Of a DNA stretch of 64,000 nt, positions 6,462 to 61,327 are shown piece after piece; position 1 is the first letter of the stretch, and every line of letters begins with the position of its first letter. The stretch comes from an uncultured Candidatus Saccharibacteria bacterium (GTDB lineage: Bacteria > Patescibacteriota > Saccharimonadia > Saccharimonadales > JAGQNJ01): the NCBI GenBank assembly GCA_964510945.1, contig CAZEED010000003.1, positions 16,222-80,221 of the forward strand, in the 5' to 3' direction. The notes beneath the pieces are model-generated. The model saw nothing but the letters and a program-made list of their open reading frames with translations, had not been told where the DNA came from and made no database searches. Position numbers and translations under genes: made by a program.

Positions 6462-9367
6462 GTGGTGAGCAAAAATCAAACTTAGCAAAAATCGAAGAAG
6501 CAGTTCTTGCCAAATGGCAAGCAGAAAAGACGTTCGAGAAGAGTATCGAGCAACGTCAAAGTAAGCCATACTTCAGTTTTTACGATGGTCCGCCGTTTGC
6601 TAATGGCTTGCCGCACTTCGGCCATAGTTTAGTTACTAGCATCAAAGACTCGGTTTTACGCTATAAAACAATGCAGGGCTATTACGTACCTAGGCGTAAC
6701 GGCTGGGATTGTCATGGTTTACCAGTAGAGTTTGCAATTGAAAAAGAATTTGGTGTTAGTGGTAAGAAGCAAATTCTAGAACTAGGTCTAGAGAAGTTTA
6801 ACAACGCTTGTAACGACTCAATCTTTAAGTACAAAGGCGAGTGGGAAGTATTGTTGCAACGTTTAGGGCGGTGGAGTGAGTACGACCATTACTATGCGAC
6901 TGTTGATAACAGCTACACCGAGAGTGTTTGGTGGGCTATGTCTCAGATTAACGATAAAGGTTTGCTATACCGTGGCTTCAAGAGTACGGCCTACTGCCCA
7001 CGATGCGAAACACCACTGTCAAACTTTGAGGTTAATGATGGTTATAAAGATAATGTGCCTGATCCAAGTTTATACGTGAAGTTCAAGTTGGTTGATGAAG
7101 ACGCTTATTTACTTGGTTGGACCACTACCCCATGGTCGTTACCTGGAAATGCGGCCATTGCGGTCAATTCAGAAGAGAAGTACGTGTATGTGCGTCTAAC
7201 AGGTGGCGACGGTAAAGAGGAAGTACTGGTGTTGGCTCAAAAACGCTTGGAAGTTCTAACGAGCGATGACTTCCATATAGAGAAAGAAGTTCATGGTCGT
7301 GATCTTGTTGGCCTAGCCTATAAACCTTTGTTTGAAGTCGACCAAGCACAGACTGCTGAAAGTAGAGAGAGTCTCTATAAAGTATGGGCGGCAGATTTTG
7401 TAAGTATTGATGATGGAAGCGGGGTGTTGCATGTGGCGCCGGCTTTTGGCGAGGACGATCTTAACCTTGGTCAAGCTAATAACATCCCTGTTCTGAAAAC
7501 GATTGATGCTAGCGGTAAAGTTGTTGCCGGTATTGGCTTTGATGATGTTAAGGGTAAGTTTTTTAAGTCAGCCGATAAGTATATCATCGAGCATTTAACA
7601 CAGCAGGGACAAGTGTATTCAGCCGAGACATTTACGCACACCTATCCGTTTTGCTGGCGGTGCGAGACACCTCTGATGTACTACGCAATCTCAAGTTGGT
7701 TTATAGGCGTCTCTTCTATTCGTGACCAACTCATAAAAACAGCTGAAGAAATTAACTGGGTGCCAGAGCACATTAAGACAGGGCGTTTTGGTAAATGGCT
7801 AGAAGGTGCTCGAGATTGGGCAGTTTCACGTAACCGTTACTGGGGAGCACCTATGCCAGTCTGGGTTAATGAAGATGATGAGGACGATTATTTGGTTATT
7901 GAAAGCTATGACCAACTTCGTGAGCTTGCCGGTCAACCAGAACTTGATCTCTCGGACGTTCATCGTCCAAAGGTCGACGATGTTGTGATTAAAAAAGATG
8001 GAAAAACCTATCGTCGTGTCGAAGAGGTGATTGACTGTTGGTTCGAATCAGGCTGTATGAGCATTGGCCAACAACACTATCCATTTGAGAATAAAGAAAC
8101 TTTTGAAAAGAGTTTCCCAGCTGATTTTATAATTGAAGGATTAGACCAAACTCGTCTTTGGTTTTATGTCCAGCATGTCGTTAATACGATTTTGTTTGAC
8201 CGACCCGCCTACAAGAATGTTGTTGTAAACGGTATGATTATGGCGGCCGATGGGCAGAAGTTATCAAAGCGACTCAAGAACTATCCGCCCGTCGAAGAAG
8301 TGTTTCAAGATGAAGGGGCCGATTCGTTGCGTCTGTTCTTGCTATCAAGTACACAGGCTACCCAGACAGCTGACTATATGCGTTTTGATCGCATGGCACT
8401 AAAAGATCTCAATCGTAATGTGCTAGGTACATTAATGAATTCTTACCGATTCTTTAAAATGTACGCAGATATTGATAATTGGAAGGCGGCACAACCTGGT
8501 AGGCAACCGCAAAGTACTAACGTACTTGATCAATGGATTATTGCGCGCTTGAACGAGACAATAACAGAGACAACACGGCAGGCCGATGATTACAAGATTG
8601 CCCACGCTATTCAGCCGATCTTTGCTTTGATCGATGATATGAGCAATTGGTATATCCGACGTTCACGTCGACGTTTTTGGAAAAGTGAAGATGATAGCGA
8701 TAAGGAGCAAGCTTACGAGACACTGTGGTATGTGCTTGTTCGTCTCTGTCAGCTTTTAGCACCATGGGCACCATTCTTGAGCGACCACCTGTGGCGAGAG
8801 CTGACTGCCGGTACAAAATTGCCGATTTCTGTTCATCTGAGCGATTGGCCAGAGGCTGAGATTCAATCTGACAGCAATCAAGTTATTGAGAAAATGCAGA
8901 GTACCCGACAGATTATTAACGACGCCCTATCTCAGCGCGGTGAAGCAAAAATAAAAGTTCGGCAACCACTCGGTAAAATTACTGTTAAAGGATTACAGGA
9001 TAGTGTAGATAAGGCATATCTCGACATTATCAAGGATGAAGTTAACGTACATGAAGTAGTTTTTGGTAAAGACACAAAACTCGACATCAAGATAACTCCA
9101 GCTTTGTACCGCGAAGGGTTGATGCGAGAGATTGTGCGACACGTACAAAATGCTCGTAAAAAGGCTGAGTTGAATGTTGATGACAGAATTGAGCTATCGC
9201 TTGAGACAAGCCATAAAGAAACGTTTCAGGCTATAAATGAACATAAAGCTACTATCGCAGCCGAAACACTAGCTACACAACTAAATACTGAATCAAAACC
9301 ACTAAAATATTCGGAAACTGTTAATGTAGAGGGCGCGGAGCTCAAGATAAGCCTACAAAAAGCCTGA
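6458..9367 (+). CDS. ileS: Isoleucine--tRNA ligase
   Basis: 969 aa with HIGH-type motif PHFGH, KMSKS-type KLSKRL and a CP1 editing region. Confidence 0.97.
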   Translation: MSGEQKSNLAKIEEAVLAKWQAEKTFEKSIEQRQSKPYFSFYDGPPFANGLPHFGHSLVTSIKDSVLRYKTMQGYYVPRRNGWDCHGLPVEFAIEKEFGVSGKKQILELGLEKFNNACNDSIFKYKGEWEVLLQRLGRWSEYDHYYATVDNSYTESVWWAMSQINDKGLLYRGFKSTAYCPRCETPLSNFEVNDGYKDNVPDPSLYVKFKLVDEDAYLLGWTTTPWSLPGNAAIAVNSEEKYVYVRLTGGDGKEEVLVLAQKRLEVLTSDDFHIEKEVHGRDLVGLAYKPLFEVDQAQTAESRESLYKVWAADFVSIDDGSGVLHVAPAFGEDDLNLGQANNIPVLKTIDASGKVVAGIGFDDVKGKFFKSADKYIIEHLTQQGQVYSAETFTHTYPFCWRCETPLMYYAISSWFIGVSSIRDQLIKTAEEINWVPEHIKTGRFGKWLEGARDWAVSRNRYWGAPMPVWVNEDDEDDYLVIESYDQLRELAGQPELDLSDVHRPKVDDVVIKKDGKTYRRVEEVIDCWFESGCMSIGQQHYPFENKETFEKSFPADFIIEGLDQTRLWFYVQHVVNTILFDRPAYKNVVVNGMIMAADGQKLSKRLKNYPPVEEVFQDEGADSLRLFLLSSTQATQTADYMRFDRMALKDLNRNVLGTLMNSYRFFKMYADIDNWKAAQPGRQPQSTNVLDQWIIARLNETITETTRQADDYKIAHAIQPIFALIDDMSNWYIRRSRRRFWKSEDDSDKEQAYETLWYVLVRLCQLLAPWAPFLSDHLWRELTAGTKLPISVHLSDWPEAEIQSDSNQVIEKMQSTRQIINDALSQRGEAKIKVRQPLGKITVKGLQDSVDKAYLDIIKDEVNVHEVVFGKDTKLDIKITPALYREGLMREIVRHVQNARKKAELNVDDRIELSLETSHKETFQAINEHKATIAAETLATQLNTESKPLKYSETVNVEGAELKISLQKA

Positions 9368-48975: not shown

Positions 48976-49683
48976 GTGAGCACCAATCGAATTCAAGTGG
49001 ACCCAAATATTCGACTTCTATATGCGCTTGTTGAAGAGTTAAAAATGCCATTTATGCAGGTGGCACGAAGTGCAGAATTTGGTCGATTAATGAACGACCG
49101 TGATCAGTATCGACGGATTGAGATTACCGCAGAAGCTGCAATTAAGTTGCTTGATAGCTATGTGCTGAGCTCGCAAACCCTAATAAATCAACTACCGCTC
49201 GAGTTAAATTCTATATCCTTAACGTCGACAATGTATGATAGTGCTCAAAATCTAAGTCGACTAACAAAACTTTACAATACCGAAATCAATATTCAGGTTG
49301 AAGGTAAGTGTGGGCTTGTCATGGCCAACAAAAATGCTCTAGAAGCGGCACTTACTAGCTTGGCCTATACATTTATTAGCGCTAATGATTTTTCGACTAA
49401 AAAGTTAGTGACGTTTTTTGCCCAAAAAGACCATGGGTTTGTTAGGGCCGGAATATACAGCTCCAACAGTCAAATTAGCAAAAAAACTTTAGATAGTGCT
49501 AGAAAATTATACGGTACGGCTAGACAACCGGCATCAACTATTACACACAAGAGTGGGGCAGGACTTTATGTTGCTGATTCATTATTCTACGCAATGAATA
49601 GTGAGTTGCAATTTTCGCGTCACAATAAAAAATCTGGCCTAATTGCAAATCTTCTCCCTAGTGCTCAATTGTCTCTTCTATAG
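48976..49683 (+). CDS. Degenerate histidine-kinase-like protein (H-box His replaced by Glu)
   Basis: 235 aa and soluble. The DHp-like LVEELKMPF aligns with the SHELRTPL consensus (H to E). It has a G2-like SGAGLYVADS and no clear N or G1 boxes. GTG start after GAGGGAGAG. Confidence 0.55.
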   Translation: MSTNRIQVDPNIRLLYALVEELKMPFMQVARSAEFGRLMNDRDQYRRIEITAEAAIKLLDSYVLSSQTLINQLPLELNSISLTSTMYDSAQNLSRLTKLYNTEINIQVEGKCGLVMANKNALEAALTSLAYTFISANDFSTKKLVTFFAQKDHGFVRAGIYSSNSQISKKTLDSARKLYGTARQPASTITHKSGAGLYVADSLFYAMNSELQFSRHNKKSGLIANLLPSAQLSLL

Positions 49684-49692
49684 TACCGTTCT

Positions 49693-50112
49693 ATGTATTC
49701 GGACTATAATATCGATATGACAGATATCTTGTTGATCGAGCCGGACACAATTCTTGGGGCCATGTACAAAAAAACTTTGCAAAGGGCAGGCTATAGGGTA
49801 GGGCTTCAAACTAACGCGCAGACTGCAATTCACGCGTTAGACCGGGATATACCTAAGCTAATTATTTTAGAAATTCAGTTGGGCGAACATAATGGAATCG
49901 AATTTTTATACGAACTTCATTCGTACCCAGATTGGCAAAATATTCCGATTATTATAAATTCATTAATTCCGGCTGATGTATTGGGAATCAATTCTGATGT
50001 TGCTAAAGAACTCGGTATTGTAGAGATCCTATACAAACCAAAAGTTACTCTCGATATTTTGTTATCTAAGTCGTCAGATTATGTGAAGGTAGAAGATGCC
50101 AGCTCCAAATAG
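49693..50112 (+). CDS. Receiver-domain-like protein with Glu at the phospho-Asp position
   Basis: 139 aa. ILLIEPD...KLIILEIQLGEHNG...IIINSL...LYKP is collinear with the receiver consensus, but DD is replaced by EPD and the acceptor D by E. Confidence 0.6.
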   Translation: MYSDYNIDMTDILLIEPDTILGAMYKKTLQRAGYRVGLQTNAQTAIHALDRDIPKLIILEIQLGEHNGIEFLYELHSYPDWQNIPIIINSLIPADVLGINSDVAKELGIVEILYKPKVTLDILLSKSSDYVKVEDASSK

Positions 50113-50788
50113 CAAATCAACCAGTGGGATTGTACTGAAGAGAATTAATTTCGGCGAGGCTGATCGGATTTTGACAATAATTACACCAGATTACGGCAAG
50201 CTGACATTAATCGCAAAAGGTGTTCGTAAAGAAAAGAGTAAATTGGCAGGTGGTATTGAACTGTTTAGTGTTAGTAGTATTAGTTTTATCCCAGCAAAAA
50301 AGGAGATTGGGACGCTAACTTCATCCAGACTCGTAACGCATTACGGCGAGATAGTAAAAGATATTAACAGGACAAATACAGCATATACAGTTCTAACTAC
50401 AATTGATTCGGTAACGCAAGAAAACTGTGATATTGATTACTATAATTTGTTACTCCGTTCGATATCGGCATTAGATAATCTTGAATATGATTTGAGCTTA
50501 GTGGAGGCATGGTTTTATATGAATCTGATAAAGATAATGGGTCACGAACCGAATCTGACAACAGATAGGGAGGGCTATAGTCTGGCAGAAGCTAGTAATT
50601 ATGCTTTTGATCAAGAGGATATGTGTTTTGTGCGCAAAGTTGATGGTTCGTATTCTAGTCGACATATAAAGCTACTGCGCTTGCTGGTAGACGAGAGTAT
50701 TGAGCGCATTAATGTGGTGGGTGGAGTTCAGGCTGAGGTTGGTGTTTGCTTGCAACTATTGCAACATATTATGCAAACCGTTAGTTAA
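50096..50788 (+). CDS. recO: DNA repair protein RecO
   Basis: 230 aa with GIVLKRINFGEADRILTIITPDYGKLTLIAKGVRK, a typical RecO OB-fold N-terminus. It overlaps the upstream ORF by 17 nt. Confidence 0.9.
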   Translation: MPAPNSKSTSGIVLKRINFGEADRILTIITPDYGKLTLIAKGVRKEKSKLAGGIELFSVSSISFIPAKKEIGTLTSSRLVTHYGEIVKDINRTNTAYTVLTTIDSVTQENCDIDYYNLLLRSISALDNLEYDLSLVEAWFYMNLIKIMGHEPNLTTDREGYSLAEASNYAFDQEDMCFVRKVDGSYSSRHIKLLRLLVDESIERINVVGGVQAEVGVCLQLLQHIMQTVS

Positions 50789-50813
50789 TACATCTGATAC
50801 AATAGATGATAAT

Positions 50814-52190
50814 ATGAGCAATAAAGTTAGTCTAGAAGATATTGTTAGTTTGTGTAAACGCCGGGGGTTTGTTTATCCTGGAAGCGAGATATATGGTGGT
50901 GAAGCGGGATTATATGACTATGGTCCTTACGGCGTTGAACTACTGAATAATCTCAAATCTGCTTGGTGGCGAGCTAACGTAACAACTCGTACAGATTTTG
51001 TTGGTTTGGATTCAGCTATCTTTAAAAATCCGAAGGTTTGGGAAGCATCTGGTCACACAACGGGATTCTCGGATCCATTAGCAGAGTGTAAGAATTGTCA
51101 TAATCGAATTCGTGTTGATAAAGAGCTTGAAGCAGTGGGCGTTACTGCTGACGAAAAAATGTCTGAGCAAGAATTAAATAAACTGTTCGACGAAAATCGC
51201 AAAGAGATTAAATGTCCTAAGTGCGGAAAGAAGAATTTTTCATCAGTTAAAGCTTTCAATCTTTTAGTAAAATCAAATTTGGGCGATTTTGCTGGCGAAG
51301 AAGAAAGGGTAGTATACCTTCCAGGTGAGGCATGCCAAGGGATTTATCTCAATTTTAAAAACGTGGTCGATACGACCCGCATGAAAGTCCCTTTTGGTAT
51401 TGCTCAAATAGGTAAGGCCTTTCGGAACGAAATTAGTCCACGCAACTTTCTATTCAGAACTCGCGAACTGGAGCAAGCCGACACGCAATATTTTATCAAA
51501 CCAAACGAAAATAAAGTCGTTTACGAACAGGTTAAAAAGAATCGTTGGAAGTGGTATCAGGATATAGGTATCAAAGAGGATAACTTACGTTGGAAAAAGC
51601 ATGATAACTTGGTCTTTTACTGTAAGGAAGCTTGGGATATTGAATACAATTTCCCGTCAATGGGCTTTGACGAGTTGGAAGGAATACATGACAGAACTGA
51701 TTACGATCTGAGCCAGCACACCAAGTTTTCTGGAACAGACTTAAGTTATCAAGACCCATCTTCTAACGAAAAATATATACCTTGGGTTGTCGAAACATCA
51801 GTTGGTCTAGGACGAATGTTCTTGGCAGTGGTATGCGATGCATACGAGCAAGAAGAAATAGATGGCGAAATACGCACTGTCTTAAAACTGCACAAATCTC
51901 TCGCTCCAGTCAAAGTTGCGGTCTTTCCGTTATTAAAAAACAAGCCCGAATTAGTCAAAAAGGCTAAAGCAGTTTTTGAAACTCTTAACCAAACCATGAC
52001 TTGTGAGTTTGATGATAATGGGAATATTGGAAAACGCTATCGTCGGCAGGACGAAATCGGAACGCCGTATTGTGTAACAATTGATTTTGAAACGTTAGAC
52101 GATGACACCGTTACGGTGCGGGATCGTGACACGACAAAACAAGAGCGAGTCAAGATTGATGAACTCGAGGGCAAGCTAAAGCTTGCATGA
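50814..52190 (+). CDS. glyQS: Glycine--tRNA ligase (dimeric GlyQS type)
   Basis: MSNKVSLEDIVSLCKRRGFVYPGSEIYGG is a typical N-terminus. It has a Zn-ribbon-like insertion CKNC...CPKC. The ORF-track start 50700 overlaps recO and is rejected. Confidence 0.95.
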   Translation: MSNKVSLEDIVSLCKRRGFVYPGSEIYGGEAGLYDYGPYGVELLNNLKSAWWRANVTTRTDFVGLDSAIFKNPKVWEASGHTTGFSDPLAECKNCHNRIRVDKELEAVGVTADEKMSEQELNKLFDENRKEIKCPKCGKKNFSSVKAFNLLVKSNLGDFAGEEERVVYLPGEACQGIYLNFKNVVDTTRMKVPFGIAQIGKAFRNEISPRNFLFRTRELEQADTQYFIKPNENKVVYEQVKKNRWKWYQDIGIKEDNLRWKKHDNLVFYCKEAWDIEYNFPSMGFDELEGIHDRTDYDLSQHTKFSGTDLSYQDPSSNEKYIPWVVETSVGLGRMFLAVVCDAYEQEEIDGEIRTVLKLHKSLAPVKVAVFPLLKNKPELVKKAKAVFETLNQTMTCEFDDNGNIGKRYRRQDEIGTPYCVTIDFETLDDDTVTVRDRDTTKQERVKIDELEGKLKLA

Positions 52191-52262
52191 GTCTCATACT
52201 TTTGACCGCCAAAACGGGGTCCCCAAAAAACCTGTTTTTAGGGGTGTAGAAGTATGCAAAAG

Positions 52263-52392
52263 CTCGGGCTTAACGTTTTTTCTTGATAGACTCACTAGTC
52301 AAGACAAACAACAGGCTGTGGAGCTCCCTACGGTCAAACAGTCCTCGCCTGATAGTTGTTTGTTTGACGTGAGTCATCAGGAAAAAGCCGAG
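52263..52392. other. About 130-nt rod-like imperfect palindrome (candidate structured RNA or MITE-like element)
   Basis: The arms CTCGGGCTT..TTTTTCTTGATAGACTCAC..GTCAAGACAAACAACAGGC and GCCT..GTTGTTTGTTTGAC.GTGAGTCATCAGGAAAAAGCCGAG pair over about 40 bp, with a few bulges and a 30-nt apex. Confidence 0.5.
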
Positions 52393-52527
52393 GCCCAACA
52401 AAACTGCACGGTAAGGGAAATTATTTTTATGATTGGGATGGTAAGGATGAAGTTAGGTTCGTGATTGACATAAAACTGCTGTAAAAATAATTTGCTAAAC
52501 TATATTTTTTCAACTTACTGATACAAT

Positions 52528-53076
52528 ATGAGAGACATGAGAGAGATTGAGGTTAAGGCACGCATAAGAGATCTAGAGAAACTAGAGAAAGTATTAGTCG
52601 AGAAGGGGATAACACTTGGCGAGAAACTAACACAACATGATGTTGTGTATGGAGAGCCTGGCAATAAAGATAATGAGTCTGGGGCAAATTGGCTAAGAAT
52701 CAGGACTGAAAATAACAAGAAGGTCTACTTTACCTTAAAAAGATCTGTTGTAGGACACTTAGATAGTATCGAGCACGAAACGATTGTTGATGACGCTAAA
52801 GAATTAGAAGAGATCATTAAGCTGTTGGGATATGAATTATATTCAGATATTACAAAGATACGTCGGAAGGCAAAGATTGGAGAGATAGAGATTTGCATTG
52901 ATAGCGTGCCGAGCTTAGGTGATTTTATCGAAGCTGAATTGATGATGGATCATCAAAGTGATCACGATATTGTGGCCGCCGAGTTATGGAAATTATTAGA
53001 ATCGTTTGGGCTTAATAGGGTAGATGAGGTGCATGAAGGATATGATGTATTAGAGCGAAAACAACGCGGATTATAA
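52528..53076 (+). CDS. CYTH-domain protein (class IV adenylate cyclase / triphosphatase family)
   Basis: 182 aa with the N-terminal ExExK signature EIEVKARI. Size and pattern match CyaB/ThTPase-like proteins. Confidence 0.85.
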   Translation: MRDMREIEVKARIRDLEKLEKVLVEKGITLGEKLTQHDVVYGEPGNKDNESGANWLRIRTENNKKVYFTLKRSVVGHLDSIEHETIVDDAKELEEIIKLLGYELYSDITKIRRKAKIGEIEICIDSVPSLGDFIEAELMMDHQSDHDIVAAELWKLLESFGLNRVDEVHEGYDVLERKQRGL

Positions 53077-53146
53077 AAATAGGGTAGACTGAAATAAAAA
53101 AAAGTAGTATAATATGTGTAATAGTTATTAAATTGTGAGGAGTTTT

Positions 53147-53518
53147 ATGAATAAAATTGTTCAGAAAATTAGTGCATTTGTGATGGTAGCAATATCAATA
53201 GTTAGTGTTGGGGCAGTAATGGTACCAGCAGCATCAGCGAAGGCAAAACCAGTATCTTGGAACTATTCTTTATGTTTAAGTAGACAGCCAATGTTAAGCA
53301 TGACAACCAACTCAACTCATCCTTGTGTTAGTATCTTGCAGAGAAAACTAAATAATGTTTATCATGTTGAACCGCGACTAGTTGTTAACGGTGTTTTTGG
53401 ACAGCAAACTAAGAAAGCTGTGAAGAAATTCCAAACACTAAAAAGCATAACTGTTGACGGTATCGTAGGCCCGCAAACTTGGAATGCTTTACTTGCAGAC
53501 TATAATCCTGGCGACTAA
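53147..53518 (+). CDS. Secreted protein with peptidoglycan-binding (PG_binding_1) domain
   Basis: Signal peptide ...VPAASA. It carries VNGVFGQQTKKAVKKFQ...VDGIVGPQTWNALL. ATG after GAGGAG. Confidence 0.8.
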   Translation: MNKIVQKISAFVMVAISIVSVGAVMVPAASAKAKPVSWNYSLCLSRQPMLSMTTNSTHPCVSILQRKLNNVYHVEPRLVVNGVFGQQTKKAVKKFQTLKSITVDGIVGPQTWNALLADYNPGD

Positions 53519-53519
53519 A

Positions 53520-53969
53520 TTAAAAATAGCTGAAAAATTTTGTTGGGTGTTCGCCTAGGTCATGAAATGACTCAGTGGTTAAAAATTTTGGCAAAACGAA
53601 GTTCTTACTGGGGTCGATAAACGCAAATTCTGCAACTTCAGCCATACCATGGCTAGTATTGCCTAGATCTATGTTCAAGTAGTCTTTGCCGTTAATGATA
53701 TGGAAGAAAAATTCCATTTGTTCTTTATGCTCGAATTGCTTGTCGAAAAATTGTTGCACGTATAGAAGGTTGCCAATCTCCGGCTTAACACCTGTTTCTT
53801 CGATCATCTCTCGTTCTAACGCCTCTAATAACGGCTCTCCCACGTCGACACCACCTCCAGGTACGCACCAGTATTTTGTGATATCATCTCCGTGCTTTGA
53901 CCTCAGTTTGAAGCATAGTAATTTTCCGTCAACAACAATAATGCCGCGTACAGCTACTCTTCTTTTCAT
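53520..53969 (-). CDS. NUDIX hydrolase
   Basis: 149 aa with Nudix box GGGVDVGEPLLEALEREMIEETG. Confidence 0.92.
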   Translation of the reverse strand: MKRRVAVRGIIVVDGKLLCFKLRSKHGDDITKYWCVPGGGVDVGEPLLEALEREMIEETGVKPEIGNLLYVQQFFDKQFEHKEQMEFFFHIINGKDYLNIDLGNTSHGMAEVAEFAFIDPSKNFVLPKFLTTESFHDLGEHPTKFFSYF

Positions 53970-54032
53970 TTATTAATAATAACATTTGTTGGTGCGCAGA
54001 ATTACACAAGTCAGCTATACTTATATGACGAT

Positions 54033-55553
54033 ATGGATCAAGCGTTAGCATTAGAGATTATGGAAGAGGGCGAGAGTGTTCTATTGACTGGACCGGCGGG
54101 TTCGGGTAAAACCTATGTGTTGAATGAATTTATTCGACGCGCCAAAAAAATGCACAAGACTGTAGCGGTCACAGCAACGACCGGCCTCGCCGCAACTCAT
54201 CTTGGTGGTAATACGATTCATTCTTGGAGCGGGATAGGGGTTCTGGAGGAATTGCCAAAACAATTTTTGGCAGGTCTGACAAAATCAAAAATTGATAATT
54301 TAACAAAAACTGACATTCTAATAATTGACGAGATCTCTATGCTACATGATTATCGACTGGATATGATTGATACTTTGCTACGCGGGGCAAGAAAAAATGA
54401 CATACCCTTCGGCGGAGTTCAAGTAATTTTGTGTGGAGATTTTTTTCAACTACCACCAGTTAATCTGCGAGATGCTAGGGATGGGTCATTTGTAGTGAAC
54501 TCCTCGTCATGGCGAGATCTAGGACCGGTAATTTGTTACTTAGACGAACAACACCGACAAGATGATAAGTTATTTTTAGATATTTTAAACGCAATTCGAG
54601 GTAATGATATTCGCAGGCGTCATGTCACGGCTCTCCAGGACAGGAAGAACAAACTGCTTGAGTCATCTGATGTCGTAACTGAACTCCACACGACAAATGT
54701 TGACGTAGATAGTTTAAATGCTCAGCAACTTTCTGGACTAAAGGGTAGTGAGCATACCTATAATATGCAGTCGACGGGGAAGGAATATTATAAAGACTCT
54801 CTTAAACGATCGTGCCTAGCACAAGAAAGACTAGTTCTAAAAAAAGGTGCGTTGGTGATTTGCATCAAAAATAATGCCGAGAAAAAATTCGTCAACGGAT
54901 CACTTGGTGAAGTTATTGGGTTTGACAAAACTACTGATTATCCCATCGTGAAGCTGAATAACGGCAAGAAGGTTACTATATTGCCAGACACATGGGAACT
55001 ACGGGATGGCGATAAAAAGCGGGCTTCACTTACTCAGCTACCACTACGATTGGCATGGGCTATTACGGTCCACAAAAGTCAAGGAATGACGTTAGACGCT
55101 GCTAGGATTAATTTAGAGAAAGCATTCGTTGAGGGAATGGGTTACGTTGCGTTATCACGAGTCCGTAGCCTAGATACGCTCAGTCTGCTAGGGTTAAACG
55201 CCATGGCGCTTCGGGTTAGTCCTGAGGCCTTAGAAATTGATCAGCAATTACGATCTCAATCAGATAAAGCAAGCAAAAAATTTGAAAAACTTCGGGAAAG
55301 GGCAAAGACAAGGAAACCCGAAATTGAAACAAAAGGTCAGGGCTCAACGTGGAGTGAAAAGCTATTAAAAATGCGACAAAAATACCCAAATGCCTATAAG
55401 CCCTGGAAAAAAACAGATGATCAAGAATTGAAAGAATGGTTTAAACAAGGTAAAGGCATTGAGGAATTGTCTGAAAGGTTTGGTCGGCATCCGGGCTCGA
55501 TAAAGAGTCGACTAGAAAAACATTTCGGCGAAGACGTGAAAATCCCTAAGTAG
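54033..55553 (+). CDS. Pif1/RecD-like SF1 DNA helicase with C-terminal helix-turn-helix-like tail
   Basis: 506 aa with Walker A GPAGSGKT, IIDEISML, ILCGDFFQLPPV and ITVHKSQGMTLD. Confidence 0.88.
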   Translation: MDQALALEIMEEGESVLLTGPAGSGKTYVLNEFIRRAKKMHKTVAVTATTGLAATHLGGNTIHSWSGIGVLEELPKQFLAGLTKSKIDNLTKTDILIIDEISMLHDYRLDMIDTLLRGARKNDIPFGGVQVILCGDFFQLPPVNLRDARDGSFVVNSSSWRDLGPVICYLDEQHRQDDKLFLDILNAIRGNDIRRRHVTALQDRKNKLLESSDVVTELHTTNVDVDSLNAQQLSGLKGSEHTYNMQSTGKEYYKDSLKRSCLAQERLVLKKGALVICIKNNAEKKFVNGSLGEVIGFDKTTDYPIVKLNNGKKVTILPDTWELRDGDKKRASLTQLPLRLAWAITVHKSQGMTLDAARINLEKAFVEGMGYVALSRVRSLDTLSLLGLNAMALRVSPEALEIDQQLRSQSDKASKKFEKLRERAKTRKPEIETKGQGSTWSEKLLKMRQKYPNAYKPWKKTDDQELKEWFKQGKGIEELSERFGRHPGSIKSRLEKHFGEDVKIPK

Positions 55554-59776: not shown

Positions 59777-59848
59777 CTGCGAGTTCAGTATAAGATAATC
59801 TTGTTTTTGTTTGGGTCTCGTCGTTCACGGGCATCGGCAGAAACCGAT

Positions 59849-59963
59849 GAATTGTAGTATGCAAGAACCGAATCAAGCTGAAAACCAGTCGAGAATCCTA
59901 TACTAAAAACAATATTCGAGACCGCTTGCGTTTTTTCGGCGCGGTTCTTGCATACTACAATTC
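59849..59963. repeat. Perfect 22-bp inverted repeat separated by 71 nt
   Basis: GAATTGTAGTATGCAAGAACCG (59849-59870) and its exact reverse complement CGGTTCTTGCATACTACAATTC (59942-59963). Confidence 0.9.
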
Positions 59964-60073
59964 AATAGTGTTTATGACTCAGCCCAGAGTTTTATATTAC
60001 TTTGGCGATACAAAGTAATGAGACGCTGAGCTTAGGCTCACAATGAATAGATTGTGCTAAAGTTAAAGTACTT

Positions 60074-61327
60074 ATGAAGAATCCTAATTCTCAATTTCCG
60101 CCGAATTTTTTATGGGGAGCGAGTACATCATCACACCAGGTGGAAGGCGGTAACCACAACCAATGGTCAGTGTGGGAACTAGCCAATGCCAAAAGCTTGG
60201 CAAGGTCGGCGCATAGTAGACTGGAGTGGCTACCTAACTGGTCAGAGATAAAACAGCAGGCCGAGGACCCGAACAACTATATATCTGGACGAGCGATTGA
60301 TCATTACCGACGCTACATAGAGGATTTTACTATTGCCAGAAGCTTGAACTTAAATTCGTTTAGATTTGGGATTGAGTGGGCCAGAATTGAGCCGAAAGAG
60401 GGAAGATGGGACAATGCGGAAATTGAGCATTATCGAAAGTATATTAAGGAGCTTCGAAAGCATGGGCTGGAGCCAATTTTGAATATTTGGCATTGGACTA
60501 ATCCGGTTTGGTTTGAAGAAAAAGGGGCATTCAAAAAGCGGGCAAATCTAAAATACTTTGATAGATATGTGCAAAAAATTTCTTCAGAATTCGGCAGTGA
60601 GCTTACTTATATAATTACCATCAATGAACCAAATGTGTATATGAGCAATAGTTACGGAATGGGGTGGTGGCCACCTCAGGAAAAGAATTGGATTAGCGCA
60701 TTAAAGGTGTATTTTAACCTCGTATCTGCACACAAAAGATCTTATAGAATACTTAAACATGATAATAAGCATTTGATGGTCGGAACGGCGCCGCAACTTT
60801 CCAATATACAGCCCAAGCGCGCTCAGAATATTATTGATAGAATGAGCGTGAGGTTAATGGAATATTTTTGGAATTGGTGGTTTTTAAACCGGATTCGTCG
60901 GTGTCAAGATTTTGTAGGTCTTAATTATTATTTTTCAGACTATTATCGAAATGCGAAAATGGATAACCCCGAGACTCCGAAAAACGATTTAGGATGGTAC
61001 ATGGAACCAGAAGGATTACATCCTTTACTGAAAAGAGTTTGGGCTAGGTATCGTAAACCGATAATCATTACCGAAAGTGGCGTTGCAGATAGTCAAGATC
61101 AGTACAGAAAGTGGTGGTTCGAACAATCAGTGATAGCAATGGAAAGGGCGTTAAGTGAAGGGGTGCAGGTAGTCGGGTATCTGCATTGGAGCTTGCTTGA
61201 TAACTTTGAATGGGCGTATGGTTGGTGGCCCAAATTTGGACTAGTTAGCGTAGATCAAAAAACTATGAAGCGCGAGATTAGACCAAGTGCTAAATATTTG
61301 GCAAAAATAATAAAGCAACTTAGCTAA
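60074..61327 (+). CDS. Glycoside hydrolase family 1 beta-glucosidase
   Basis: 417 aa with the acid/base TINEPN and nucleophile ITESG motifs. Confidence 0.92.
   Translation: MKNPNSQFPPNFLWGASTSSHQVEGGNHNQWSVWELANAKSLARSAHSRLEWLPNWSEIKQQAEDPNNYISGRAIDHYRRYIEDFTIARSLNLNSFRFGIEWARIEPKEGRWDNAEIEHYRKYIKELRKHGLEPILNIWHWTNPVWFEEKGAFKKRANLKYFDRYVQKISSEFGSELTYIITINEPNVYMSNSYGMGWWPPQEKNWISALKVYFNLVSAHKRSYRILKHDNKHLMVGTAPQLSNIQPKRAQNIIDRMSVRLMEYFWNWWFLNRIRRCQDFVGLNYYFSDYYRNAKMDNPETPKNDLGWYMEPEGLHPLLKRVWARYRKPIIITESGVADSQDQYRKWWFEQSVIAMERALSEGVQVVGYLHWSLLDNFEWAYGWWPKFGLVSVDQKTMKREIRPSAKYLAKIIKQLS

Follow-up and report, generated by a model that had tools for sequence, protein, structure and literature searches.

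What is the long hairpin that occupies the spacer behind the glycine--tRNA ligase gene glyQS in a Saccharibacteria genome, and how did it come to be there? The stretch of DNA that we analysed, hereafter the window, comprises 64,000 nucleotides (nt) of contig CAZEED010000003.1 from an uncultured Candidatus Saccharibacteria bacterium. Its initial annotation drew attention to a 337-nt non-coding gap after glyQS, which indeed lies between the glyQS stop codon (52188-52190) and the start of the open reading frame (ORF) of a CYTH-domain gene at 52528. Within this gap is an imperfect hairpin of ~130 nt, hereafter the rod, which had been read either as a dedicated structural RNA or as a dispersed palindromic repeat. 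We find instead that the rod is lineage-specific and consists of an older hairpin to which 77 nt have been added, the 5' part of this addition being an inverted copy of the adjacent sequence. The rod is probably a young quasi-palindrome in a rapidly rearranging spacer and not a conserved RNA gene, with templated inverted duplication as its most likely origin.

Folding the plus strand of positions 52255-52400 as RNA places the outermost pair of the rod at G52266-C52396, a few bases away from the limits of 52263-52392 first assigned to it; the remainder of that description is accurate. The main stem has ~42 bp, interrupted by bulges at 52288, 52296-97 and 52302, and closes on an apex of about 30-40 nt that includes GGAGCTCC. 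The fold is exceptional: its minimum free energy (MFE) is -62.1 kcal/mol, where dinucleotide shuffles average -35.7 ± 3.7 (z = -7.2; none of 200 as low). Among 2555 overlapping 146-nt segments scanned across the whole 64 kb, the rod gave the lowest-energy fold on both strands, lying ~5 standard deviations below the plus-strand mean of -28.5 ± 6.5. The minus strand of 52255-52400 reaches an MFE of -56.7 (z = -5.3), and folding with DNA parameters gives -31.3 (z = -5.7).

The comparison of syntenic gaps in related genomes that had been proposed for this locus was carried out on relatives ranked by the nt identity of a single gene, glyQS, to that of the window. Five were compared: L099 (ENA k141_522714) at 94.3%, L098 (GCA_041908465.1) at 93.4%, L001 and L097 at 84% and L002 at 74%. 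The inner 77 nt of the rod (the 77-nt block) are absent from all five, the nearest genomes included, and the rod is thus not conserved. In L099, L098, L001 and L097 both flanks align well and read GTTTTTTCTTG joined directly to TTTGACGT(G/A)A(G/A)CT(C/T)ATCAGGAAAAAGCCGATGCCC. Block-free relatives have only a ~55-nt hairpin, made of an 11-bp A/U-rich stem, a 4-6-bp GC clamp and a 16-nt loop, with z-scores of -2.7 in L099 and L098, -0.4 in L001 and +0.5 in L002. L002 keeps only the 3' half of this hairpin and the CAACAAAACTGC-TACAAT promoter-like box that follows it, without trace of the inner arms. The identical 77-nt block occurs in seven contigs of the same species (L081, L082, L088, L091, L092, L094 and L096), three of which (L081, L082 and L088) match the entire gap exactly. 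Because all relatives sampled around the window are block-free, and are paraphyletic with respect to it by glyQS identity, a single gain of the block in the window lineage appears more parsimonious, though not proven, than at least three identical deletions. Further afield, the best 80 syntenic glyQS loci in the GTDB genome set all belong to metagenome-assembled genomes (MAGs) of Saccharibacteria/Patescibacteria, and the other 78 of them show no similarity to the rod region. Nor did we find a comparable rod after glyQS in these other Saccharibacteria, where the low-energy segments of L029, L040 and others are branched, rich in GC at 50-63%, and fall mostly in coding sequence.

The block sits in the loop of the older hairpin, and its junction carries a 3-nt TTG microhomology, hence is ambiguous by 3 nt. 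Of the pairs in the MFE structure, 19 run from flank to flank and form the old basal stem, 19 lie within the block and 15 join block to flank, the last set pairing 52286-52304 of the block with the pre-existing former loop at 52363-52377. The 27-nt 5' arm of the block, which reads AT[A]GACTCAC[TA]GTCAA[G]ACAAACAAC, is the reverse complement of the 23-nt 3' arm GTTGTTTGTTTGACGTGAGTCAT (52355-52377), with no substitutions and three insertions of 1-2 nt, and 15 of the 23 nt of that 3' arm are sequence of the pre-existing loop. The alignment of the 5' arm with the reverse complement of the 3' arm scored above all 2000 shuffles. As a control, we shuffled the block and kept the real flanks, which gave an MFE of -41.6 ± 3.3 (minimum -54.0), with none of 1000 shuffles reaching the observed -62.1. 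By itself the block does not fold unusually well (-20.0 against -14.7 ± 3.0; z about -1.7 to -1.8). Taken together, these two controls indicate that the extra stability of the rod comes from the complementarity of the block to its flank, not from the block itself. Two further changes specific to the window lie in the old 3' half of the hairpin: G52392, which is T in all relatives and gives one extra pair, and the loss of one C from GAGCTCAT, which likewise improves pairing.

A similar arrangement is found just upstream. The second hairpin that the initial annotation had placed at 52220-52243 is present, its arms CCCCAAAAAAC and GTTTTTAGGGG lying at 52221-52231 and 52234-52244, and it is contained in a 37-nt indel (CGGGGTCCCC...GTAGAA; block 1) that splits an older 10-bp hairpin consisting of CATACTTTTG (52195-52204), the loop ACCGC, and then CAAAA and GTATG (52210-14 and 52252-56). 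In the alleles without block 1 (L087, L098 and L100), a simple 10-bp hairpin, CATACTTTTG-ACCGC-CAAAAGTATG, follows directly after the glyQS stop codon, with a compensatory C-G to G-C change at its base in L100; block 1 is present in the window, L001, L097 and L099. Through pairing of the 3' part of block 1 with the 5' arm and loop that were already there, the stem reaches ~23 bp. The region has an MFE of -23.1, against -14.9 ± 2.6 with the block shuffled (5 of 1000 as low), and block 1 alone is unremarkable. It therefore shows the same signature as the 77-nt block, namely stability gained from pairing with the flank. The positions of all features are collected in Table 1.

Table 1. Features of the glyQS-CYTH spacer and its neighbouring genes, in window coordinates
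Feature	Positions	Strand	Remarks
First compound hairpin	52195-52256	+	Older 10-bp hairpin split by the 37-nt block
Block 1, 37-nt indel	52215-52251	+	Contains the CCCCAAAAAAC/GTTTTTAGGGG hairpin
Basal stem of rod, 5' half	52266-52285	+	GGGCTT..GTTTTTTCTTG; common to L001, L097, L098 and L099 (alignments, pair table)
77-nt block	52286-52362	+	Specific to the window lineage; in the loop of the older hairpin
77-nt block, 27-nt 5' arm	52286-52312	+	
77-nt block, ~42-nt apex	52313-52354	+	
77-nt block, 8 nt of 3' arm	52355-52362	+	GTTGTTTG
Former loop of short hairpin	52363-52377	+	TTTGACGTGAGTCAT; now outer 3' arm, pairs with 52286-52304
Basal stem of rod, 3' half	52378-52396	+	CAGGAAAAAGCCGAGGCCC
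Conserved CAACAAAACTGC	52397-52408	+	Common to relatives (alignment)
AT-rich remnant	52409-52527	+	~120 nt; only short patches align with relatives
93-aa ORF	52183-52464	+	Judged spurious
recO	50096-50788		Upstream of glyQS
glyQS (glycine--tRNA ligase, 458 aa)	50814-52190	+	Pfam tRNA-synt_2b and HGTP_anticodon
CYTH-domain gene	52528-53076	+	Pfam CYTH; downstream neighbour of the gap
Peptidoglycan (PG)-binding protein gene			Further downstream
NUDIX gene		-	Further downstream
PIF1-type helicase gene			Further downstream

Variation within the block is seen in one further contig, L087 (SRR33215309), which lacks block 1 and shows no difference from the window across 190 nt of the gap and 1358 nt of downstream sequence. 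Its positions 1-125, aligned with 52204-52340 of the window, hold five differences within 52285-52337 (G52285T, A52288T, an additional A near 52301, G52323A and A52337G), four of them inside the block and one, T for G at 52285, just outside it; G52256A is found in addition. None of the five is compensatory, one breaks the pair G52285-C52378, and the MFE weakens to -55.5. Because the changes are non-compensatory and the fold is weaker, this variation would speak against strong selection on the structure; it is consistent with a left contig end that is recombinant or chimeric, or with a mutational hot spot in the quasi-palindrome. Many Logan contigs also end inside the hairpin, at 52285, 52339 and 52343 (two each) and at 52362, 52363, 52367 and 52382. 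If these break points are read as co-occurring alleles with and without the block, the left junction fits exactly, whereas the right-hand breaks do not; they are compatible with strain heterogeneity.

The history that we favour begins with a modest hairpin that lay after the glyQS stop codon and ahead of the promoter of the following gene. The ancestors of this strain then gained 77 nt inside the loop of that hairpin; the 5' part of the addition repeats in inverse orientation the sequence just downstream of the insertion point, so that the old loop became stem and the length of the stem approximately doubled. The likely mechanism is a template switch during replication or repair, in which the nascent strand would copy the complementary or the nascent strand and return via the TTG microhomology. 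Since the new DNA is complementary to the DNA that adjoins it, template switching is indicated rather than transposition, and the 37-nt block, bearing the same signature, would mean that the spacer has grown hairpins at least twice. Template switching creates and extends RNA stems, including by insertion on one stem half (Monttinen & Loytynoja 2022, PMC8794818). The rod resembles the published cases in that its insertion, on one half of the stem, is the reverse complement of adjacent ancestral sequence and turns a loop into stem, in that its junction shows microhomology, and in that nearby changes (the T-to-G change at 52392 and the lost C) raise complementarity. The ancestral state is likewise provided by outgroups, namely the block-free L099, L098, L001/L097 and L002, albeit from one gene and a small number of taxa. 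Most of the documented cases concern short changes in the stems of rRNA and miRNA (PMC8794818), whereas the rod lies in an intergenic spacer of a bacterium of the candidate phyla radiation (CPR), and the event is large, with only 27 of the 77 nt clearly templated.

Several observations weigh against this history. The inverted copy is imperfect, being interrupted by three bulges, and does not show the long uninterrupted match that a strict test for a single template-switch event looks for. The ~42-nt apex has no clear source, its similarity to a neighbouring motif being marginal (p about 0.03-0.07), and one clean template switch does not account for the whole block. All four combinations of the 37-nt and 77-nt indels are found (both in the window, only the 77-nt block in L087, only the 37-nt block in L099, neither in L098), which implies recombination among lineages or recurrent change. 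The polarity of the 77-nt event is a parsimony argument on one gene and five relatives. The main stem contains four G-U wobble pairs on the plus strand and no A-C, the pattern expected from constraint at the RNA level, with n = 4. Finally, the searches for further copies of the block covered 64 kb of this genome and related loci, and the metagenome scans evidently did not include the species. A description of the block as ~2.3 tandem copies of one inverted motif, which had the same marginal support (p about 0.03-0.07), was not adopted, and Tandem Repeats Finder reported no array.

Could the rod nevertheless be an RNA with a function of its own? The initial annotation had likened it to the dedicated rods of 4.5S or 6S RNA and proposed a covariance-model search around the gap. 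In overall shape and length it does recall signal recognition particle (SRP, 4.5S) RNA and 6S RNA, which form rod-like hairpins of 100-180 nt. We ran cmscan with Rfam 15, using the gathering score for the whole window and permissive filters at E <= 10 for 52100-52600. The former search returned no family, and the latter only four chance matches (E = 0.7-7.7; snoRNAs, cow-rumen-2 and a Na+ aptamer at 12.8 bits), none of them SRP, 6S, RNase P or tmRNA and none spanning the rod; ARAGORN found no tRNA and no tmRNA in the window. Unlike SRP and 6S RNA, the rod has no helix 8 motifs and no central bubble, and it is not conserved even at 93-94% glyQS nt identity. Since a housekeeping RNA cannot lack its core in a sister species, an SRP- or 6S-type reading is excluded, and the proposal of a divergent known RNA in general (SRP/4.5S, 6S, RNase P, tmRNA, or a riboswitch or leader for CYTH) is almost certainly wrong; a leader or riboswitch for CYTH was considered in its own right and rejected. 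That the rod is not a simple terminator had been recognised from the outset. Like Rho-independent terminators it is a sense-strand stem-loop that comes straight after a stop codon, but its stem is 4-5 times longer than usual, the base of the stem is A/U-rich and no U-tract comes after it (GGCCCAACAAAACUGC); the sequence following the stem, CCCAACAAAACTGC, does not make up the combination of a short GC-rich stem and a U-tract. A promoter and terminator scan of 52000-52700 found no sigma-70-like promoter and no terminator-like site on the plus strand, and two weak promoter-like sites and one unrelated terminator-like site on the minus strand. Selection for a new plus-strand RNA after the loss of the GNAT gene and promoter described below, whether as a stabiliser of the glyQS 3' untranslated region (UTR), a U-tract-independent terminator or insulator, or a young small RNA, has more in its favour and is nonetheless unlikely. 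Because the plus-strand fold is 5.4 kcal/mol more stable than that of the minus strand (-62.1 against -56.7), with the G-U pairs noted above and no A-C, the strand bias is a weak hint at tolerance or selection at the RNA level; moreover, seven contigs of different samples agree exactly in this sequence, pairing gains both from the T-to-G change at 52392 and from the lost C of GAGCTCAT, and the basal hairpin stands out (z = -2.7) in L099 and L098. Templated mutation would, however, be expected to improve pairing just as well, the basal hairpin does not reach significance in L001 and L002, the plus strand has neither a promoter-like site nor a U-tract, and L087 has five changes in 52285-52337 of which none is compensatory and one breaks a pair, at a cost in MFE (-55.5).

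The other readings concern the origin of the rod. An ERIC- or miniature inverted-repeat transposable element (MITE)-type palindrome, the second interpretation in the initial annotation, finds no support within the sequence searched. The rod resembles REP/BIME, ERIC, Correia and RUP-type repeats and MITEs in being a ~130-nt imperfect intergenic palindrome downstream of a gene, one that would be co-transcribed and could protect an mRNA 3' end or insulate neighbours, but those families consist of many dispersed copies, whereas the rod was found once and is complementary to its own flank. The 77-nt block and its apex have a single copy in the window, about 10% of a genome of the size usual for Saccharibacteria, and do not recur at any other position across related loci (100 loci, 737 kb). 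The exact apex pattern ACAGGCTGTGGARCTCCCTACGG has no match in IMG/VR or in the JGI metagenomes, the latter a weak negative as they apparently do not contain the species (the flank pattern also gave 0); the block 1 pattern has none in IMG/VR, and BLAST against phage and plasmid collections returned no match. That the 77-nt block, and perhaps the 37-nt one, is a small non-autonomous mobile element (MITE, PATE or REP-like) inserting into hairpin loops or arms is nevertheless suggested by the two discrete, sharp-ended indels within 150 nt, by the occurrence of all four presence/absence combinations among close relatives, and by the several Logan contigs that end within the hairpin, in two cases precisely at the left junction 52285; the insertion also adjoins TTGAT/TTG, which resembles the target use of IS200/IS605. 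We consider this quite unlikely: beyond the missing second copy, the block lacks both its own terminal inverted repeats and a target-site duplication, with only the ambiguous 3-nt TTG at its junction, it folds no better than shuffles, no transposase lies nearby, and the complementarity of its 5' 19 nt to the target's own flank is unexpected for a transposed sequence. The direction of change could also be the reverse, with the long rod ancestral and 52286-52362 deleted independently in the relatives. Long palindromes are unstable and prone to deletion, the TTG microhomology at the junction suits such an event, and the complementarity is equally well explained if the flank is the remainder of an old 3' arm. 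The same 77-nt deletion with identical end points would, however, be required in at least three lineages (L099, L098 and L001/L097), the end points 52285/86 and 52362/63 do not face one another across the stem, whereas hairpin-promoted deletions are usually symmetric, and L002 has no trace of the inner arms; this makes an ancestral rod very unlikely.

Under the template-switch history, any activity of the rod would be a by-product. In the 3' untranslated tail of glyQS, or in read-through RNA, it would form a very stable stem-loop. REP-like hairpins impede 3' exonucleases or read-through, and the rod could incidentally do the same, slowing read-through towards CYTH or stabilising the mRNA end; we infer no dedicated function for it, and see no sign that it is needed. 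The rod is ordinary in kind, and it is its origin that is instructive. For annotation, it does not merit the label of an SRP-, 6S- or sRNA-like gene, and the 93-aa ORF running across it should be dropped. This ORF, already suspected to be an artefact of the palindrome, has no Pfam family and no homologue, its sole match among 5.8 billion protein clusters being the identical sequence, and its frame is destroyed in relatives without the block. The locus also offers a clean natural example, with both alleles present in close relatives, of a long near-perfect stem arising in one or a few steps of templated inverted duplication and not by many point mutations, and within a single 200-nt spacer of this streamlined Saccharibacteria genome such growth of a stem is seen twice. 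At the same time it cautions that an exceptional folding energy (z = -7) is in itself no evidence of a functional RNA. A bolder version, to which we give little credence, is that the spacer captures the birth of a long structured RNA/DNA hairpin in a reduced CPR genome, through two successive inverted duplications (37 and 77 nt) whose products may have been kept as a U-tract-independent 3'-end or insulator element for glyQS, or else that a class of tiny elements targeting hairpin loops, as yet undescribed, has its first members in the two blocks.

The remainder of the gap has a different history. In relatives, a 137-aa GNAT acetyltransferase gene (L001 5532-5945; Pfam PF00583) lies between the hairpin and CYTH, and in L098, where the corresponding region is 1807-2953, an SDR gene is found there too, before CYTH. 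These genes are gone from the window, where a short AT-rich remnant is left, and the large gap is therefore, as judged from the alignments, in part the scar of a gene deletion. In relatives the conserved CAACAAAACTGC continues into TATAAT/TACAAT, an extended -10 element (TGnTAnAAT) right before the following gene; the window has other sequence in place of this hexamer. The AAAACTGC motif is duplicated in the window, at 52400-52407 and 52472-52479, and an extended -10-like box, TGATACAAT (52519-52527), abuts the CYTH ATG. In relatives CYTH begins at ATGAGAGAGATTGA and encodes 179 aa, whereas the start region in the window (52519-52545) reads ATGAGAGAC followed directly by ATGAGAGAG; since ATGAGAGAC represents a 9-nt duplication of the start region, the true CYTH start is probably 52537. 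Relatives have similar TGnTAnAAT boxes 6-12 nt upstream of the start codon in both the GNAT gene and a GH1 gene. Together with the -10-like box against the CYTH ATG, these suggest leaderless or near-leaderless mRNAs in this lineage.

Upstream of the gap, the longest glyQS ORF extends from a TTG at 50700, and homologues begin at MSNKV (50814); a 100%-identical 458-aa protein, P0002, was found in the protein collection. Nearly all of the genes examined in 49000-55500 are on the plus strand. The window has a G+C content of ~39% and a GC skew that is positive throughout, and a replication origin or terminus was rejected on this uniformity. An integron attC site was also considered. Such a site has R''/R' core sites (RYYYAAC ... 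GTTRRRY) at both ends together with an integrase or cassette context; GCTTAAC is found at the 5' base of the rod, but there is no GTTRRRY partner at its 3' base and no integrase among the neighbouring genes.

Two further structured sequences were observed in the course of this work. In L040, a distant Saccharibacteria MAG, a SAM riboswitch (RF00162, 70 bits) lies at 6974-7077, ~2.3 kb downstream of glyQS, the only Rfam match in 14 related loci. The window itself contains a perfect 23-nt inverted repeat (TGAATTGTAGTATGCAAGAACCG and its complement) at 59848-59870 and 59942-59964, with a 71-nt spacer, which forms the second most stable fold in the window. This repeat sits in a gap (59777-60073) upstream of a GH1 beta-glucosidase gene (60074-61327) and has no Rfam match at the gathering score. 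It is identical in L102 and L104 and absent from the L002 species (L105). The L001 species (L101) keeps it; there, one change is compensated between the two arms, and two more changes stay paired, as G-U, only on the minus strand. The repeat could represent a structured RNA on the minus strand or a switch flanked by inverted repeats.

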